Shown here: one piece after another, positions 33,913 through 43,364 of the stretch
Position numbering within the stretch: the stretch's first letter is position 1
Layout: each line of letters starts with the position of its first letter
Source: a phage
Direction: 5' to 3' (one strand)
NCBI GenBank assembly: GCA_018509705.1
Contig: GCA_018509705.1_3630.1
DNA length: 64,000 nt
The notes under the pieces: generated by a model
The model's database searches: none
Told to the model about the DNA's origin: nothing
Seen by the model: only the letters and a program-made list of their open reading frames with translations
Position numbers and translations under genes: made by a program

Positions 33913-33989
33913 TGGTCTCCACGGAGTGATTCGAACACTCGACCTCCTGATCCCAAATCAGGCGCTCTACCAAGCTGAGCTACGCGGAG
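33913..33989 (-). tRNA. tRNA-Pro (anticodon UGG)
   Basis: Hand-folded cloverleaf: acceptor CTCCGCG, D-loop TAGCTCAG, anticodon loop TTTGGGA, T-loop GGTTCGAATC, encoded CCA. Confidence 0.8.
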
Positions 33990-34000
33990 TATTTATTATT

Positions 34001-34075
34001 TGGTGGCCCTGGGTGGAATTGAACCACCGTCTGGCGATTATGAGTCGCTTGCTTGAACCTTCCAGCTACAGGGCC
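34001..34075 (-). tRNA. tRNA with CAU anticodon (Met, or Ile2 lysidine-type)
   Basis: Acceptor GGCCCTG/CAGGGCC, anticodon arm GCGA-CTCATAA-TCGC, T-loop TTCAATT, encoded CCA. Confidence 0.75.
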
Positions 34076-34076
34076 A

Positions 34077-34152
34077 TGGTGCTGATGGCAGGACTTGAAC
34101 CTGCAACCTATTGATTACAAATCAATTGCACTACCAATTGTGCTACATCAGC
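34077..34152 (-). tRNA. tRNA-Thr (anticodon UGU)
   Basis: Acceptor GCTGATG/CATCAGC, D-stem GCAC/GTGC, anticodon arm ATTGA-TTTGTAA-TCAAT, T-arm GCAGG-TTCAAGT-CCTGC, CCA. Confidence 0.8.
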
Positions 34153-34157
34153 AAAAA

Positions 34158-34256
34158 GGTGCTAGGTGATGGAATCGAACCACCTATGTATTCAACGACT
34201 ACCTCGTCTATTTTCAGGATTAAAAATCCTCGCCCTTGCCAAAGGGCTTACCTAGC
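34158..34256 (-). tRNA. atypical tRNA-like gene (about 99 nt; isotype unresolved)
   Basis: Good acceptor (GCTAGGT/ACCTAGC) and T-arm (GGTGG-TTCGATT-CCATC), but about 24 extra nt between D and T arms; anticodon arm ambiguous (AGGAT-TTTTA-ATCCT or 4-bp stem with UUU). Confidence 0.3.
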
Positions 34257-34354
34257 TCAGTATGTTGACCATGTTGCTAGTCGGCGATGACGACTGTAAC
34301 ATTTGATAATCCGGTTCTGCTTCCGGCTTTCGCTTAATTACAAGGTCAACAATA

Positions 34355-34445
34355 TGGCTGAGGGTAATGGAATCGAACCATCATCAAGTCATCCTCAACG
34401 GGACGGTTTTCAAGACCGCTTGAGCACCATTGCTCCCTACCCTCA
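34355..34445 (-). tRNA. tRNA-Ser (anticodon UGA), long variable arm
   Basis: Acceptor TGAGGGT/ACCCTCA, anticodon arm GCGGT-CTTGAAA-ACCGT, long variable arm, T-loop TTCGATT, CCA. Confidence 0.7.
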
Positions 34446-34559
34446 TTTATAAACAATACTGATAATGACACTGATTTTCGAGCAGTTAGTGACTAGTATA
34501 AACGACGATAAATATCAATGCCATTATCTGTATGATTTATGCATTTAAAACTATAAATT

Positions 34560-34646
34560 TGGTGGGGAGTGGTGGAGTCGAACCACCCGAGTCGCAATGA
34601 CAATAGATTTACAGTCTACACCGCTACCCCTACGGGATAACTCCCC
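34560..34646 (-). tRNA. tRNA-Tyr (anticodon GUA), long variable arm
   Basis: Acceptor GGGGAGT/ACTCCCC, anticodon arm GTAGA-CTGTAAA-TCTAT, T-arm GGTGG-TTCGACT-CCACC, CCA. Confidence 0.7.
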
Positions 34647-34650
34647 AATT

Positions 34651-34725
34651 TGGCACCCCGTACTGGACTCGAACCAGTGTCAACGGCTTAGAAGGCCGCT
34701 GCTTTATCCACTAAGCTAACAGGGC
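34651..34725 (-). tRNA. tRNA-Arg (anticodon UCU)
   Basis: Acceptor GCCCTGT (two G-U pairs), D-stem GCTT/AAGC, anticodon arm GCGGC-CTTCTAA-GCCGT, T-arm ACTGG-TTCGAGT-CCAGT, CCA. Confidence 0.75.
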
Positions 34726-37617: not shown

Positions 37618-38172
37618 TTACTCCCCGCTGTCAATAGCAAAACTCATTGCAATACGGTATGCCTCTTCTAATGGTAAGAGTCTCCCCCACACATCCCAAC
37701 CGACATCAAACTGTCTGCCAAACAACTGTTGTGTGGTTCCGTGAGCATGACCGAACAGTTGGACTGATCCGTGAGGCTTTCTGTTCCACTTTGCAAACTG
37801 GTAATGGCTCATACAGATCAAATTCTTGTTGTGGCGAAGCTCGTAATAATCTACAACCTCATGACCGAACTCTTTCATAATTCTGACAGTCGTCCTTGTG
37901 TCATGGTTACCACGAACAAGAATAATATGTCCGTTCAACATATTTAGAACATCTGGGAGCAATTTGTTGATATTCTTATCATTAGTGCACGCAATATCTC
38001 CCAAGTGAAACACAGTGTCTGCAGGTGACACAACAGAGTTCCACTTGGTGATGATTCCCGCATTCATACTGTCAAGATTGTGATCATACTGAGATCTGTG
38101 TTTTTGACATGAGTCGAACTCCATGACCCGCTGGTGGAGAAAGTGTGTGTCGCTTGTTACAAAGTATTTCAT
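37618..38172 (-). CDS. calcineurin-like metallophosphoesterase (possible polynucleotide 3'-phosphatase)
   Basis: Motifs VTSDTHF, GDIACTNDKN and LVRGNHD; track ORF trimmed to the ATG just downstream of the kinase stop. Confidence 0.55.
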   Translation of the reverse strand: MKYFVTSDTHFLHQRVMEFDSCQKHRSQYDHNLDSMNAGIITKWNSVVSPADTVFHLGDIACTNDKNINKLLPDVLNMLNGHIILVRGNHDTRTTVRIMKEFGHEVVDYYELRHNKNLICMSHYQFAKWNRKPHGSVQLFGHAHGTTQQLFGRQFDVGWDVWGRLLPLEEAYRIAMSFAIDSGE

Positions 38173-38179
38173 ACATTCC

Positions 38180-38590
38180 TCATTTAAGTTTAATGCAGTT
38201 TTTAAGCTGGCGTTCCATACGATCCACAACCCTGTCTGGAACATCATGAATGCTTTTATTACCATGGCGGTTTTCAACCACGATCACGGTATAACTATAC
38301 CCATGACTGATCGCCATGTCAATATATTCTTGCACATATTTTTCTTTTGTAAACGTATTACTTACCACGATACGGTCGTATCCCATACGCATCATATCTT
38401 CTACGTTATCTTTGCACCATTTTGCTGCAAGTGTTACTTTACTTGCATCCCAGTTGTAATTTCCATCATCGTCGTACCAGAACATGTCGTTCTCAAAATG
38501 TGGATACAGACCTTCTAAAGATAGCGCATTTGCCAGTGTTGATTTGCCAGACCCTGGTAGACCACGCACGATATATAGCATTTTAGACAT
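38180..38590 (-). CDS. P-loop kinase (polynucleotide kinase-like)
   Basis: Walker A MLYIVRGLPGSGKSTLA close to the N-terminus; start placed at the ATG preceded by GGAGGA. Confidence 0.5.
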   Translation of the reverse strand: MSKMLYIVRGLPGSGKSTLANALSLEGLYPHFENDMFWYDDDGNYNWDASKVTLAAKWCKDNVEDMMRMGYDRIVVSNTFTKEKYVQEYIDMAISHGYSYTVIVVENRHGNKSIHDVPDRVVDRMERQLKNCIKLK

Positions 38591-38650
38591 AGTAATCCTC
38601 CGTTTTAATTTCAACGATAGTATACCCAACTGTTTTGTTAATTTCAAGTG

Positions 38651-38680
38651 TTGACACTAGGTTATTTGTGTGGCAGGATA
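38651..38680 (+). promoter_or_regulatory. candidate sigma70-like promoter for the plus-strand early gene block
   Basis: TTGACA at 38651-38656; downstream -10 is weak (caggat/gataga), so the call is tentative. Confidence 0.3.
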
Positions 38681-38690
38681 GACTGACAAA

Positions 38691-39626
38691 ATGACAAATG
38701 AGGAATGTATAATGAAGTATTTTAATGCAGACGACCTAGTTGACAAAGGTCTTGTAACCAGCAGATATTACCCAGATCTTGGGTTAAAGATCTATAAATA
38801 TGCCAGAAAAGTATTCTACAACAACTTATGGCATTTGTCTCCTCGATTACTGGAGTGCCGAGGCATTGTTGTCGGTAATGAAGGAAATGTTGTGGCATGG
38901 CCCTTCACAAAAGTGTTTAACTTGGGAGAAAACTCCACCAACCTGCCTGACAATAAGCTTGTGACGGCGGTAGAGAAAAAGAACGGATTCCTTGGTGTGG
39001 TGTCATCTCATAAAGGTGAACTATTGTTCTCAACAACCGGGTCTCTTGATTCTCCATATTGTAACCTTGCAAAGGAAACCATCCAGGAGCAATGCAGTAA
39101 TTTAGATCTTATCAAGAAGGTTATGGGCAATGAAAACATGACATTCATGTTTGAAATTTGTCACCCTTCAGATCCGCATATTGTTCAGGAAGATCATGGT
39201 GCATATTTGATAGGTTGCAGATATAATGATTCTGGAATAATGCTACCAGAAGCAGCTTTAGATGGGATTGCCAAATACCTTGGTGCAAAACGTCCTCACA
39301 CTGTGCGTGAAATTCCGTTCAGTTATGCAAAAGAATTGGCTGCAGAAACAAGAGGTGAAGGGTATATGATTCGTAAGCCTTACTACCCTTATGATCTGCA
39401 GCTGAAGATTAAGTCTCCATACTATCTGGCACGGAAGGCCGTAATGAGGGGTAAAGCTTGGAAGATTTGGGATGATGATATCTTTAAACGTGTTGACGAA
39501 GAGTTTTACGGCATGGTAAACTTCATTCGTAACAACTACACAGAGGATGTATGGAACTGCCTCCTGGAGCAGGAACGCCGTGAGATACTTGATTACTATT
39601 TCCACAACGAGAACTATATGCAATGA
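38691..39626 (+). CDS. RNA ligase (nucleotidyltransferase superfamily)
   Basis: Motif I-like VEKKNGF, motif IV-like GEGYMIRKP, motif V-like LQLKIKSP; adjacent to kinase/phosphatase and the tRNA cluster. Confidence 0.55.
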   Translation: MTNEECIMKYFNADDLVDKGLVTSRYYPDLGLKIYKYARKVFYNNLWHLSPRLLECRGIVVGNEGNVVAWPFTKVFNLGENSTNLPDNKLVTAVEKKNGFLGVVSSHKGELLFSTTGSLDSPYCNLAKETIQEQCSNLDLIKKVMGNENMTFMFEICHPSDPHIVQEDHGAYLIGCRYNDSGIMLPEAALDGIAKYLGAKRPHTVREIPFSYAKELAAETRGEGYMIRKPYYPYDLQLKIKSPYYLARKAVMRGKAWKIWDDDIFKRVDEEFYGMVNFIRNNYTEDVWNCLLEQERREILDYYFHNENYMQ

Positions 39627-39973
39627 AGAAGTTGATTGTGTGGCTAGATGACTTGAGAGATCCGTCAAATTATGGGCTCCCAGACGCTATTTGGCTAAAG
39701 AATTCCTCCGAGTTTATGGATTTTATTAACGATAATAAAAAGCTCTACAGACGCGTTTCTGAGTGGCATATGGACAACGACCTTGGAGAGGTATTCGAAG
39801 GGTACGATTGCCTATCCATGTTGGAGGAAAAGTTTGTATTTGGTAAGCCTCCTGTAGTTGACAACGTGAAGATTTTCGTGCATACTTCTAACCCATCAGC
39901 GGCTCGTAAATTCATGCTTGCGACTGACTCGTTTAAAAAGTTTGGAATAGAGATTAAACAAAACATCTACTGA
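39623..39973 (+). CDS. hypothetical protein (116 aa)
   Basis: ORF track; overlaps the RNA ligase stop and precedes the Sir2-like gene. Confidence 0.4.
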   Translation: MKKLIVWLDDLRDPSNYGLPDAIWLKNSSEFMDFINDNKKLYRRVSEWHMDNDLGEVFEGYDCLSMLEEKFVFGKPPVVDNVKIFVHTSNPSAARKFMLATDSFKKFGIEIKQNIY

Positions 39974-39981
39974 GGACACTT

Positions 39982-40743
39982 ATGCGACGACTGATTGTTA
40001 TCTCCGGTGCTGGTTTGAGTGCTGAATCTGGTATTCCCACTTTCCGATCTGGTAGCACTGCAATGTGGGAGAATTTCAGCATCGATGAGGTGTGCAACAT
40101 CCACACCTTTGCCAAGAACTACTATAAGGTGCATGACTTTTACAATGCACGTCGTGTAGCTTTAGGCAGTGTTGAGCCTAACCTTGCACATCTTCGGATC
40201 GCTGAGTGGTATTCCCGCTGGTCTGGTCGTGTGATCAACCTTACCACCAATGTAGATGATTTGCTGGAGCGTGCTGGTGTAAAACATGAAGATATTTTAC
40301 ATGTCCACGGGTATTTGCCAGAAATAGTCTATGAGGACGATGAAGGAAGTGACGTCATTAAGGACATTGGATACTCTGAGGTAGACGCAGGAAAGTATAC
40401 CTGGGTTAAGCCTAATGTGGTGTTCTTCGGAGAAGTAGCTCCGAAGTATACAGACATGTATGACCTGTTGACTTCTCTTACGAGCAATGATATGGTTATC
40501 CTTGTAGGGTGCTCCAACACAGTTATCAATTTTAACTGGGAGCTATTCCCTGCCTGCAATAAGGGAACCAAACTACTGATCGTTAATAAATACGACTCAC
40601 AGCATCTAGAGGAGAATGGCATTTCACGTAGTGATATTTACCAGTATGAGGATCGCGGCATCCCAGTTTGGTTTAACGGTGCGGTTGATGCCTTCTCTGA
40701 TAAAACATTCATTGAGACTGTAGAAAACTTTATGGAACTTTAA
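39982..40743 (+). CDS. Sir2-family NAD-dependent deacylase / ADP-ribosyltransferase-like protein
   Basis: N-terminal GAGLSAESGIPTFRSG motif and HVHG catalytic-His motif; Zn-ribbon cysteines not evident. Confidence 0.65.
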   Translation: MRRLIVISGAGLSAESGIPTFRSGSTAMWENFSIDEVCNIHTFAKNYYKVHDFYNARRVALGSVEPNLAHLRIAEWYSRWSGRVINLTTNVDDLLERAGVKHEDILHVHGYLPEIVYEDDEGSDVIKDIGYSEVDAGKYTWVKPNVVFFGEVAPKYTDMYDLLTSLTSNDMVILVGCSNTVINFNWELFPACNKGTKLLIVNKYDSQHLEENGISRSDIYQYEDRGIPVWFNGAVDAFSDKTFIETVENFMEL

Positions 40744-40756
40744 AAGGAGACCTTTA

Positions 40757-41470
40757 ATGCTGAATACTAAATTAATTGACAACCTGGAAAAACTATCCCA
40801 ACCTGAAAACTACCTTTGGTCTGCCAACTGGGTGGAAAACTGGAACCGTGTGGCAGCTAAAGTGAAAAAATCATACACACCATTCGAATTACAGCTTAGC
40901 TTCATTGAGGAAGAGTTCAATGAAGTTTTGGAAGAGCTGGAGAAAGGTGATGGTGGAGATCACCTGCTAAAAGAGGCCTGCGATCTTCACGTTGTCACAA
41001 GTTATGCAGCTTATCTTGTTAATGACAATCACGAAAAGTGGTCAAACCTGTTTGATAATCCACGAGGTCTTAAGTTCAAGATCGGTGAGTTCTATGACAC
41101 ACTGATCGCTGCGAAAAACACATCCAAGCAAAGAGCGTCAGCTTACCGTTTAGCGGAGTTGTCAACAGCTTTGCTGTTCCAGCTTCGCGGCGATGTGTGC
41201 GGGATGATGCGTAAGGTTCTCAAATCGAATGACAGCAAGTTTGCACGGGTCAACCATCTACGGTATTCACACGGTGCCAGTGCAGATATGCCTGCTGAAC
41301 AACTCATCGAGTTGGAGATTAAAGATCTTGAGCGACGCTTTGATGGTCGATATGAAGGTTTTGTTGCTAAGGAAGAATTCTACAACGGTAATAAAGTTAT
41401 CATATTCCTCGACAGTAAAGGTAAGATTATGAAGCCTTCAAGCTTCAAGGATGTAACAGAATATATTTAA
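40757..41470 (+). CDS. hypothetical protein, possible MazG-like nucleotide pyrophosphohydrolase domain
   Basis: Glu-rich segment SFIEEEFNEVLEELEKGD...LKEACDL resembles all-alpha NTP pyrophosphatase metal-binding motifs; weak. Confidence 0.3.
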   Translation: MLNTKLIDNLEKLSQPENYLWSANWVENWNRVAAKVKKSYTPFELQLSFIEEEFNEVLEELEKGDGGDHLLKEACDLHVVTSYAAYLVNDNHEKWSNLFDNPRGLKFKIGEFYDTLIAAKNTSKQRASAYRLAELSTALLFQLRGDVCGMMRKVLKSNDSKFARVNHLRYSHGASADMPAEQLIELEIKDLERRFDGRYEGFVAKEEFYNGNKVIIFLDSKGKIMKPSSFKDVTEYI

Positions 41471-41477
41471 TAATATA

Positions 41478-41505
41478 GCCGGGGCGATCCCGGCTTTACT
41501 TGTTT
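41478..41505 (+). terminator. hairpin plus T-rich tail
   Basis: gccggggcgatcccggc followed by tttacttgttt. Confidence 0.4.
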
Positions 41506-41534
41506 CGGAAAGTATGCAAGTGAGGTAGAAAGTT

Positions 41535-41843
41535 ATGTACAAGCACTCCAGAGATCTTGAAAACGATGCTGTGTTTGGGGATCAGATGAAAGAATTGGTT
41601 AAACTTATAGGTAGGATAGAGGATAAGTTTGACACTAAGATCTACATCGACAGCAAAGTATTCAACCACAAAATATGGACAAATCTGTGTGTTGGACTAC
41701 ATGGAGATAAAGATGTGGTAAATTTAGTTGTAATTAAGTTCATAGTGTGGCAGAATAAAACTATAAATTATTACGATCCACACCTGCTTGTTTACCCGAT
41801 AAAAGACCTATTAGAGAAGGAGGACTGCAATGCCGTTATTTAA
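41535..41843 (+). CDS. hypothetical protein
   Basis: ORF track; AGGTAGAAAG-type RBS. Confidence 0.35.
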   Translation: MYKHSRDLENDAVFGDQMKELVKLIGRIEDKFDTKIYIDSKVFNHKIWTNLCVGLHGDKDVVNLVVIKFIVWQNKTINYYDPHLLVYPIKDLLEKEDCNAVI

Positions 41844-42099
41844 TCTTGCTAAACCTGTAGAAGCACACCAGTTTGACGGAAGCTCTTCATCAGTATCTGA
41901 TCTGCAACGGTGGATTGATACAGGTGTGTTTACATCGTCACCTGTTCGGACCAGAGATCTTCGTCGTATGTGTGAGCTTGTAGAGCCGTTTGGTAACCTA
42001 GTCTTGTACCAGGGTGATTGGCTTGTTGATTTTATGGGTGACTGGTTGGTAATGAGTAAAGAAGAGATGTTTAAAATTTTTAAGGAAGAGGTAGAGTAA
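41830..42099 (+). CDS. hypothetical protein
   Basis: ORF track; coupled to neighbours. Confidence 0.35.
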   Translation: MPLFNLAKPVEAHQFDGSSSSVSDLQRWIDTGVFTSSPVRTRDLRRMCELVEPFGNLVLYQGDWLVDFMGDWLVMSKEEMFKIFKEEVE

Positions 42100-43364
42100 T
42101 GCATCAATTCAAAACAACACTTTATGCTCGCAATAAAGACGGGTCCATCCAGATGTGGAAAGTAGATACAAGCGGCAACGAGGTTATTGTTGTGTTCGGC
42201 AGGGTTGGTGGCGCTGTACAATCAAAAACCACAAAATGTGAAGCCAAAAACATCGGGCGATCCAACGAAACTACAGCAGAAGAACAAGCTGTTTTAGAGG
42301 CGCAGTCTAAATGGGAAAAGCAAGTCCGGCTGGGTTACAAAGAAAATGTCGAAGACCTTGAGGCCATTGACATTTCACCTATGCTGGCGCAAGATGCTTC
42401 GAAAAAACCACACGCTATTGTGTATCCATGCCACCTGCAACACAAACTTGACGGGAACCGTTGCTTTGTCAAATTCGTAGACGGTGTACCTAAATTCATC
42501 TCTCGCGGTAACAAAGTGTATGAGCCGAAAGGTAACATCCTCCGTGAGCTACAAGACCTGCATGAAGAAACAGGCTTTGATGAATTTGATGGGGAGTTCT
42601 ACATTCACGGTTTACCGTTGCAGAAAATAACCTCCCTCGTTAAGAAATGGCGTAGTCTGGAAGACATTGAGAAAGAAATTGATAAGGATTTCATGGCAGA
42701 CATAAAACGCCGTGAGAAAGCGATCAAGGCCGGAGAGGAGACATGGAAAGACTTCAACAAGGTTGATCATCCGGTTTATGAAGAACCTGTCCGTGATTCT
42801 GATCGGTATGGAGGTTACTGCTCTTATGACCTGAAACTGATGGTGTTCGATGTTCCTGATTGCATCCATCGCTGGGAAGATCGGGCCACAAATCTTCAGG
42901 AAGTTATTGATTATTGTGAAGTTAACCATCTCACAAACGTCGAGGGTGTTCCTTTCAAGATCGCCTACAACGAGGAAGAGGTTCGCAACTCCATCGGACA
43001 GTACATGCAGGAAGGTTATGAAGGATCTATTATTCGTAACTTCTGTGGCACCTACGAATACGGTCAACGCTCTACTGATCTGCTCAAGTGGAAACTGTTC
43101 ACCGATGTTGAAGCAAAAGTGATCGGTGTTGAAAAAGATAAAAACGGGGAAGGTGTTCTTATCTGCGAAGAGAAAGATGGGACACAATGCAAATGCAAAA
43201 TGAAAGGCACTTTTGCCGTAAGGAACTACGAAAAATGCTGCTCATATGTTGGCAAATTTATCACGATAAAATTCCAACAGCGTACGGTGGACGGTGTGCC
43301 TCAATTCCCTGTGGGTATCGCATTCCGCAATCTTAATCCAGAAACTTGGGAGGTGCTGGAATAA
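42099..43364 (+). CDS. ATP-dependent DNA ligase
   Basis: Adenylation motif I PCHLQHKLDGNRCF (KxDGxR) and further nucleotidyltransferase motifs; 421 aa. Confidence 0.7.
   Translation: MHQFKTTLYARNKDGSIQMWKVDTSGNEVIVVFGRVGGAVQSKTTKCEAKNIGRSNETTAEEQAVLEAQSKWEKQVRLGYKENVEDLEAIDISPMLAQDASKKPHAIVYPCHLQHKLDGNRCFVKFVDGVPKFISRGNKVYEPKGNILRELQDLHEETGFDEFDGEFYIHGLPLQKITSLVKKWRSLEDIEKEIDKDFMADIKRREKAIKAGEETWKDFNKVDHPVYEEPVRDSDRYGGYCSYDLKLMVFDVPDCIHRWEDRATNLQEVIDYCEVNHLTNVEGVPFKIAYNEEEVRNSIGQYMQEGYEGSIIRNFCGTYEYGQRSTDLLKWKLFTDVEAKVIGVEKDKNGEGVLICEEKDGTQCKCKMKGTFAVRNYEKCCSYVGKFITIKFQQRTVDGVPQFPVGIAFRNLNPETWEVLE

Follow-up and report, generated by a model that had tools for sequence, protein, structure and literature searches.

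The stretch of phage DNA analysed here (NCBI GenBank assembly GCA_018509705.1, contig GCA_018509705.1_3630.1; 64,000 nucleotides, hereafter the window) carries a gene for a Sir2-family protein, or sirtuin, between two other genes on the same strand. An earlier reading of these genes, made from the sequence alone, had placed the three open reading frames at 39623-39973, 39982-40743 and 40757-41470, where we also find them. The existence of the Sir2-like gene and of both neighbours is confirmed, and they are part of a gene block for the repair of RNA breaks. The window derives from an rV5-like Escherichia myovirus (Vequintavirus); from end to end, the region 38600-42200 shares 96-98% DNA identity with DrSchubert, slur12, rV5_ev147 and over 100 further phages. 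For the rV5 phage group this gene neighbourhood is already known, as a computational prediction from comparative genomics published in 2022.

Organization of the sirtuin locus

The first of the three genes encodes a 116-amino-acid (aa) protein with a cREC domain (39623..39973, + strand), and its start overlaps the stop of an RNA ligase gene by 4 nucleotides (nt), in an ATGA at 39623-39626. The ligase is of the T4 Rnl1 type (305 aa, 38712..39626, +) and matches Pfam RNA_lig_T4_1 (3.3e-15, 57 bits against a cut-off of 28.3) and PHROG 562 (1.2e-66); a phmmer search of the ligase against the Protein Data Bank (PDB) gave no match at E 0.01. Its open reading frame opens at an ATG at 38691, and the second ATG, at 38712, is the likely true start because it is preceded at about 8 nt by a GAGGA Shine-Dalgarno sequence and agrees with the annotated 305-aa coding sequence of DrSchubert. 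The sirtuin gene (253 aa, 39982..40743, +) follows the cREC gene after 8 nt (TGA 39971-39973, ATG 39982), and a gene for a 237-aa MazG/HisE/dimeric-dUTPase-like protein (40757..41470, +) follows the sirtuin gene after 13 nt, with Shine-Dalgarno sequences in both gaps. Translational coupling of the 116-aa and sirtuin genes, as proposed from the sequence alone, is plausible in that a GAGGA Shine-Dalgarno sequence extends across the end of the former, although the two frames do not overlap. Immediately beyond the MazG-like gene is an intrinsic-terminator-like hairpin, AGCCGGGgcgaTCCCGGCT, with a T-rich tail (41477..41505, +); a scan gives it eight pairs, six of them G-C, and the annotation of phage Gotham has an ARNold terminator at this site. 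The genes for Rnl1, cREC, Sir2 and the MazG-like protein thus form one tight unit closed by a terminator. A sigma-70 promoter scan returned 20 sites against 15.5 +/- 4.1 expected, which is within background, and we therefore claim no promoter for this operon.

Two further genes are divergent from the ligase operon, lying on the opposite strand and beginning about 100 nt upstream of the ligase gene. The nearer encodes a P-loop kinase of 136 aa with the motif GLPGSGKS (38180..38590, -), a candidate 5'-OH polynucleotide kinase that matches Pfam AAA_33 (2.7e-10) and PHROG 505, polynucleotide kinase (3e-10), and is labelled 'polynucleotide kinase' in DrSchubert. The second encodes a calcineurin-like metallophosphoesterase of 184 aa (37618..38172, -), a candidate end-healing phosphatase for 2',3'-cyclic or 3'-phosphates; it matches Pfam Metallophos_2 (1.7e-6) and Metallophos (4.1e-6), in both cases above cut-off, and PHROG 547, phosphoesterase (5e-51), and DrSchubert annotates it as 'putative phosphoresterase'. 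The genes flanking the sirtuin gene, which had been taken to be of unknown function, are accordingly neither unknown nor housekeeping genes: the upstream one encodes a cREC protein, in a unit with an Rnl1-type ligase, a kinase-like protein and a metallophosphoesterase. The sequence-only reading had missed this context, namely the ligase overlapping the cREC gene, the divergent kinase and phosphoesterase, the terminator, and a DNA ligase gene and tRNA cluster that are described below.

The sirtuin and its cREC and MazG-like partners

The 253-aa product of the central gene reads MRRLIVISGAGLSAESGIPTFRSG and bears GAGLSAESGIPTFRSG, and its HVHG occupies residues 107-110 (nt 40300-40311). Against Pfam SIR2 (PF02146) it scores 96.2 bits, where the cut-off is 24, with an E value of 3e-27 over profile positions 1-178 of 180. 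The best sequence match in the PDB is E. coli CobB (1s5p, 1.7e-21), followed by SIRT5 and Sir2Af1, and identity to CobB is about 40% in the first ~100 residues and about 28% overall. An AlphaFold2 model of the protein has a pLDDT (predicted local distance difference test score) of 89.8, and a Foldseek search with this model returned no proteins other than deacylases of classes III and U. CobB (E value 5e-19), SIRT5 and Sir2Af1 head this list, and the template-modelling scores are 0.73-0.83. In an alignment of 22 clade members sharing 50-60% identity, residues G9, A10, G11, S16, G17, F21, R22, N90, D92, H109 and G110 are invariant in all 22, as are the motifs FYxxRR, PNxxH, T89-N-V-D92, KPNVxFFxE and GxSNxVI. 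The window protein has FYNARR, identical to E. coli CobB, an FFGE loop and GCSN, and Y54 and R57 do not vary within the clade. The YxxR motif of class III sirtuins recognises acidic acyl groups, according to published work on SIRT5 and CobB. An inactive fold, which the sequence-only reading had named as part of the outcome that would count against it, can be rejected, as all of the catalytic residues (GAG..SG..FR, N90/D92 and H109) are invariant, and the structural model is a confident one.

The protein nonetheless departs from canonical deacylases at several positions. It has no cysteine between His109 and the FFGE loop, where CobB carries its zinc ligands, and residues 110-150 are free of cysteine throughout the 22-member alignment, so that the description of a Sir2-family protein with HVHG but no zinc cysteines holds. 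The three-stranded small domain is predicted with a pLDDT above 90 despite the missing cysteines. The TQNID motif of canonical deacylases is an invariant TTNVD in the clade, with the Gln replaced by Thr89, and Asn183 occupies the position at which the GxSxxVxP substrate loop has a Pro that is conserved in deacylases (PMC5107563). Every NCBIfam CobB cut-off is missed: among NF040867, NF001753 and related models the best score is 123.3 bits against a cut-off of 243, and the score against prot_deacyl_CobB is 104 bits against a cut-off of 320. Distant homologues from jumbo phages (L057 and L058, about 41% identity) keep the CxxxxC/CxxC...CxxC cysteines and the Gln, and the loss of zinc is therefore derived in the clade of medium-sized phages. 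The clade is also acidic, with isoelectric points (pI) of 4.7-5.8 and a net charge of about -15 in the window protein. Judged by these features, the protein is an intact yet divergent CobB-type sirtuin, zinc-less and class III-derived (CobB/SIRT5-like).

Searches for other relationships were negative. A PADLOC scan of the three proteins gave nothing beyond a partial match of the sirtuin to PDC-S65 (13.8 bits, E 0.006), and with no significant match to a defence Sir2 family a defence-type NADase was rejected. No homology to Tpt1/KptA (PF01885), which has an ADP-ribosyltransferase (ART) fold, was found; SIR2 was the sole Pfam match and the fold search returned sirtuins only. The sirtuin could thus be at most an analogue of Tpt1 and not a member of its family, because one has an ART fold and the other the sirtuin Rossmann fold.

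The 116-aa protein matches Pfam cREC_REC (PF20274) with an E value of 1.7e-14 and a score of 54.7 bits, the cut-off being 27. Alignment of 40 sequences shows no variation at D9, D10, D51, L54, G60 and H87 and at least 90% conservation of D53 and N90, and the window protein has all of these residues; the aspartates are acidic residues inherited from receiver domains, and H87 and N90 are specific to the family. The name denotes a "cyclic-phosphate processing receiver", as defined in a 2021 jumbo-phage paper (PMC7824862), and the protein is predicted to be an esterase of cyclic phosphates. According to PMC9503650, the family has yet to be characterised by experiment, and it is fused to Nudix domains in some jumbo phages. 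A HMMER scan for cREC yielded 120 representative clusters, and its distant contexts are mixed: it lies near ArfA, Thg1, NUDIX and Acb1 genes in jumbo and T4-like contigs, and among small unknown genes in a T5-like phage, contexts that hint at a role in RNA or translation. On a jumbo-phage contig and a 222-kb phage contig (L063 and L066), cREC is found in a conserved stretch with ArfA, a protein of ribosome rescue, and a Thg1-family tRNA 5'-end enzyme, along with a faint NUDIX match and, in L066, Acb1. This suggests that cREC may be tied more widely to tRNA or translation rescue, independently of Sir2. In phage ESCO5, a 114-aa cREC gene carries the wrong label, 'RNA ligase and tail attachment protein'.

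The 237-aa protein is a putative member of the all-alpha NTP pyrophosphohydrolase superfamily (MazG/HisE/dimeric-dUTPase-like). The MazG-like Glu-rich motif seen in the initial reading is present as FIEEEFNEVLEELE, followed by KEACDL, and is invariant in homologues. The best structural match is to a dimeric dUTPase, and there is an extra conserved C-terminal beta-hairpin region.

Neighbourhoods of the sirtuin in other phages

We examined the genomic context of the sirtuin clade in 59 loci, from 58 viral contigs and DrSchubert, using an 8-kb neighbourhood for cREC and for the ligase of T5-like phages. In a first search no gene of the block was present in more than 14 of these loci: a MazG-like gene was found in 14, the phosphoesterase in 13, the kinase also in 13, Rnl1 in 12 and cREC in nine. 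At least three gene orders are present. In the rV5 type, to which the window belongs, the kinase and phosphoesterase (PE) genes are inverted relative to the rest ([PE<-kinase<-][->Rnl1->cREC->Sir2->MazG]). In the Mydo type the order is PE...Rnl1-cREC-kinase-Sir2-DNA ligase...MazG, on a single strand with gaps of 2-12 nt. The third type, in other relatives, is without cREC (PE-Rnl1-kinase-x-Sir2-DNA ligase...MazG). The linkage survives rearrangement. The MazG-like gene adjoins Sir2 only in the rV5 type, and is elsewhere about 3 kb downstream, past the DNA ligase gene. In relatives that lack cREC, a conserved protein of 161-162 aa (family f73; L040:7302-7787, L051:7079-7561) is encoded between the kinase and Sir2; a Pfam scan of it gave no match, and it is a candidate for a non-orthologous replacement of cREC.

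Sir2 is also accompanied by RNA-end enzymes in more distant phages. Among 31 T5-like loci there is no ligase within 8 kb of Sir2, and in 28 of them a 168-aa family is encoded just downstream, of which a representative matches Pfam HAD_SAK_2 (9e-21), a 'Swiss Army Knife RNA repair' phosphatase. On a 607-kb jumbo-phage contig, a Sir2 homologue of 42% identity has an RNA_lig_T4_1 ligase (2.7e-28) two genes upstream and is adjoined downstream by HAD-like and P-loop genes. From the T5-like, rV5-like and jumbo contexts together we conclude that the pairing of Sir2 with an RNA-end enzyme recurs in unrelated phages. The link of Sir2 to RNA repair is supported but loose.

Additional features lie close to the block in the window. 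An ATP-dependent DNA ligase gene (421 aa, 42099..43364, +; Pfam DNA_ligase_A_M 3.4e-12, OB_2 1.1e-6) keeps its synteny with the block in every related phage, and directly follows Sir2 in Mydo-type phages. Seven phage tRNA genes, identified with ARAGORN and Rfam, are located about 3 kb from the repair block (33913..34725, -), and are possible repair substrates or a parallel strategy against tRNA-cleaving defences. One tRNA-like gene in this cluster (34160-34256, -; 97-99 nt) is unusual in that ARAGORN assigns it a 4-base anticodon and Rfam scores it as a tRNA at only 35.5 bits, and its DrSchubert counterpart is annotated as tRNA-Lys (AAA). The anticodon arm reads GAGGA-UUUUUAA-UCCUG (UUU), and the extra arm, at about 25 nt, is odd for a tRNA-Lys. 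As tRNA-Lys(UUU) is the classical target of PrrC, an atypical phage copy beside the repair block could provide a second route of evasion.

Two other observations came from the searches. In IMGVR_UViG_3300012996_000001, what appears from reading its sequence to be a gene for a ribose-phosphate pyrophosphokinase (Prs)-like protein (291 aa; L059:5463-6335, -) is positioned about 2 kb upstream of a Sir2 homologue that is followed by a DNA ligase gene; a connection with the supply of precursors for nucleotides or NAD is possible. Some two dozen records bear the name 'Campylobacter phage' and give C. jejuni as host (C2, C11, C12, A116 and others; for example MG065652.1 and MG065655.1). They are 92-99.6% identical to the module, and are probably mislabelled or contaminant coliphages.

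Probable repair of RNA breaks and the proposed role of the sirtuin

The context of a ligase, a kinase-like protein, a metallophosphoesterase and cREC points to the repair of RNA, and of tRNA in particular, broken by host anticodon nucleases. We have high confidence that the trio forms the promoter-distal portion of a heal-and-seal block for RNA (tRNA), which acts as a counter-defence against RNA-cleaving immunity. Most likely the block repairs tRNAs, or other RNAs, after their cleavage by metal-independent ribonucleases of the host, anticodon nucleases among them. The suggestion that the genes constitute a module with a counter-defence role is plausible and they do form a tight unit, although the context points to RNA repair rather than to NAD. 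Metal-independent ribonucleases leave 2',3'-cyclic-phosphate and 5'-OH ends. We infer each biochemical step, above all the sirtuin substrate, as follows: the kinase would phosphorylate the 5'-OH, cREC would open the cyclic phosphate, the phosphoesterase would remove the monoester, and Rnl1 would seal the break. The sirtuin would then contribute an NAD+-dependent step, the best-argued form of which is Tpt1/KptA-like; a residual 2'-phosphate on the RNA would be moved to NAD+ to give nicotinamide and ADP-ribose 1'',2''-cyclic phosphate, and the latter would be degraded by cREC, the phosphoesterase and the MazG-like pyrophosphatase. As an overall account of the sirtuin and the block, such an NAD+ step linked to RNA repair is our leading reading, held tentatively and at somewhat less than even confidence.

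This scheme largely coincides with a published one. Iyer, Burroughs, Anantharaman & Aravind (2022, Viruses 14:1977, section 3.7.3; PMC9503650) describe exactly the same neighbourhood as their type 2, 'prototyped by Escherichia phage V5 and Proteus phage Mydo', and propose that the sirtuin acts in the manner of KptA/Tpt1 on RNA 2'-phosphates with NAD+, and that the esterases take the cyclic phosphate or ADPR>P; they also cover the T5/SP15-type pairing of Sir2 with HAD. To this we add the limits of the operon and, for the sirtuin, the finding that FYNARR is the same in CobB, the replacement of Pro by Asn and of Gln by Thr, and an acidic pI; we also add that in Phapecoctavirus and T5-like phages Sir2 is detached from the ligase cluster.

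In its most specific form, the model makes the zinc-less sirtuin a non-homologous analogue of Tpt1/KptA, with an RNA 2'-phosphate or other nucleic-acid phosphate as the nucleophile, and cREC a new class of cyclic phosphodiesterase; we regard this form as unlikely. It is favoured by the operon arrangement of Rnl1, cREC and Sir2, by the RNA-end enzymes that recur beside Sir2 in unrelated phages, by the way in which the small domain and loop that bind the substrate have diverged, and by the resemblance of the two reactions. In sirtuins and Tpt1 alike, a substrate oxygen attacks C1'' of NAD+, and the ribose 2''-OH then attacks in turn.

Several considerations weigh against a role of the sirtuin in RNA repair. 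In the T4 Pnkp/Rnl1 pathway, a kinase, a phosphatase and Rnl1 are complete and leave no 2'-phosphate, and since the kinase, phosphoesterase and Rnl1 encoded here already make up a complete pathway of the T4 type, a Tpt1-like step is not obviously needed. The acidity of the sirtuin clade is unusual, in our view, for an RNA-binding enzyme. The Sir2 clade is widespread without a ligase nearby, and cREC is within 8 kb of it in only nine of the 59 loci. In Phapecoctavirus ESCO5 (KX664695.3), Sir2 is located beside a DNA methylase gene and 33 kb from an intact repair cluster (loci L067/L068, at 17.5 kb and 47-52 kb), and this cluster contains cREC, a metallophosphatase, an RNA ligase, an ATPase and a DNA ligase but no Sir2. 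The phyletic profiles of the Sir2 clade and the Rnl1 type also overlap only in part: the former is found in 982 phage records, including 287 from Salmonella (mostly T5-like), and the latter in 769, with 14 from Salmonella, 177 from Pseudomonas and 127 from Streptomyces, neither of the last two being among the ten most frequent names for the Sir2 clade; cREC is found in 349 phage records. Literature searches for experiments on phage Sir2 or cREC turned up only comparative genomics and a 2016 modelling and transcript study of Vibrio phages, and we found no experimental test of the sirtuin's role. Finally, the acyl-recognition motif FYNARR (YxxR) and the FGE loop would, as sequence features, fit a lysine deacylase equally well.

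This last point leads to the strongest alternative, which is that the sirtuin is a conventional NAD+-dependent lysine deacylase (a deacetylase or desuccinylase like CobB or SIRT5) that remodels the acylation of host or phage proteins, for example by reactivating acetylated acetyl-CoA synthetase or translation or nucleic-acid enzymes, with its position in the block reflecting shared expression timing. We consider this possible, if on the doubtful side. The closest sequences and structures (CobB, SIRT5, Sir2Af1) are all bona fide deacylases, the CobB-like YxxR motif is invariant in the clade, His109, N90/D92 and the FFGE loop are conserved, the small domain is confidently predicted without zinc, and Sir2 is detachable from the RNA-ligase cluster. 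However, the zinc ribbon is lost, the Pro of the beta-staple loop is Asn183, the NAD motif has the Q-to-T change, and scores fall far under the CobB equivalog cut-offs; moreover, Sir2 repeatedly adjoins RNA-end-processing enzymes in distant T5-like, rV5-like and jumbo phages, and as E. coli has its own CobB the gain from a second deacylase is unclear. A deacylase role has been published for zinc-less phage Sir2/CobB proteins by Skliros et al. (2016; PMC5107563), who described them in KVP40-related Vibrio phages, listed the T5 homologue as conserved, and proposed that they deacetylate host enzymes. Two more speculative ideas are that the sirtuin might protect the active-site lysines of the ligase, or might deacylate N-acetyl-aminoacyl-tRNA produced by GNAT toxins.

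It is quite unlikely, in our estimation, that the three genes do not cooperate at all and merely lie side by side in a vertically inherited early block for nucleotide and nucleic-acid metabolism, with the MazG-like protein a house-cleaning (d)NTP/dUTP pyrophosphatase and Sir2 and cREC independent of it. The loci with the full block all come from related large myoviruses, so that the synteny may be inherited; the restriction of MazG-Sir2 adjacency to the rV5 type, the dimeric dUTPase as best structural match, and the separation of Sir2 from cREC in T5-like and Phapecoctavirus genomes would also fit. Against this, the overlapping or nearly abutting frames and the single terminator argue for co-expression, and the pairings of Sir2 with the ligase and with HAD_SAK recur in unrelated phage groups. 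The remaining alternative, close to what the sequence-only reading had put forward, is that the trio counters NAD+ depletion or otherwise manipulates NAD+ (as NADase, through NAD protection, or by ADP-ribosylation of host proteins), and we judge this very improbable: sirtuins can ADP-ribosylate and defence sirtuins are NADases (PMC9503650, and general knowledge), and cREC with the pyrophosphatase could in principle degrade ADP-ribose-derived signals, but PADLOC gave no significant match to a defence Sir2 family, the relatives are deacylases, the trio proteins match no Macro, NADAR, ARG or NAD-synthesis family in Pfam or NCBIfam, the Macro partner is missing from the neighbourhood (PMC9503650), the neighbours are RNA-end enzymes, and a sirtuin that consumes NAD+ would worsen its depletion.

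If a Tpt1-like NAD+-dependent step in RNA repair is indeed the role of this protein, it would be the first sirtuin to act on nucleic acid, extending the reach of sirtuin chemistry from protein acyl groups to RNA phosphates, and the block would represent a second, independently evolved pathway of NAD+-dependent RNA dephosphorylation, used by phages against RNA-cleaving immunity. The rV5-, Mydo- and T5-like phages, many of them candidates for therapy, would then carry an NAD+-dependent RNA-repair arm against tRNA-cleaving defences. The value of the present analysis is as a pointer to the published prediction, together with the caveats that come from sirtuin detachment, the deacylase motifs and acidity.

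Among known systems, the closest is the V5/Mydo neighbourhood (PMC9503650), which has the identical gene set (sirtuin, T4-like tRNA ligase, cREC, nucleotide kinase, MazG-superfamily pyrophosphatase and calcineurin-like phosphoesterase) and differs in nothing substantive, the window being from a close relative of rV5. The defence Sir2 NADases (ThsA, DSR1/2, Sir2-HerA, pAgo-Sir2) have nothing in common with the phage sirtuin beyond NAD+ use and a fold of the Sir2 superfamily, the phage protein being standalone, small and single-domain without a sensor domain, and unlike the phage NAD+-reconstitution pathways the trio includes no NAD-synthesis enzyme. With CobB and SIRT5 the sirtuin shares GAGxSxxSGIxxFR, FYNARR (YxxR), PNxxH, the catalytic HG, the FGE loop and the overall fold, but it has no zinc cysteines, has TTNVD for TQNID and GCSNxVIN for GTSxxVYP, and carries an insertion of 20-30 residues near its C-terminus. 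T4 Pnkp and Rnl1, which counter PrrC, resemble the block in the Rnl1-family ligase, the 5'-kinase and 3'-end phosphatase functions, the lytic coliphage background and the counter-defence logic. Here, however, the kinase (AAA_33) and phosphatase are separate genes rather than a bifunctional Pnkp, the phosphatase is calcineurin-like and not HAD/DxDxT, and the ligase is shorter than T4 RnlA (305-311 aa, matching positions 32-250 of a 373-position model) and not its equivalog (40 bits against a cut-off of 242); T4 has neither a sirtuin nor cREC in its repair pathway. In the proposed logic, the block matches the tRNA splicing of fungi and plants by Trl1 (ligase, kinase and cyclic phosphodiesterase) with Tpt1/KptA. 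The sirtuin differs from Tpt1 in being acidic and in having the sirtuin Rossmann fold rather than the ART fold, and the predicted cyclic phosphodiesterase is cREC rather than a 2H protein, but in both cases a cyclic phosphodiesterase, a kinase and an ATP-dependent ligase would be joined by an NAD+-consuming enzyme that removes the 2'-phosphate at the junction, with cREC standing in for the cyclic phosphodiesterase of Trl1.

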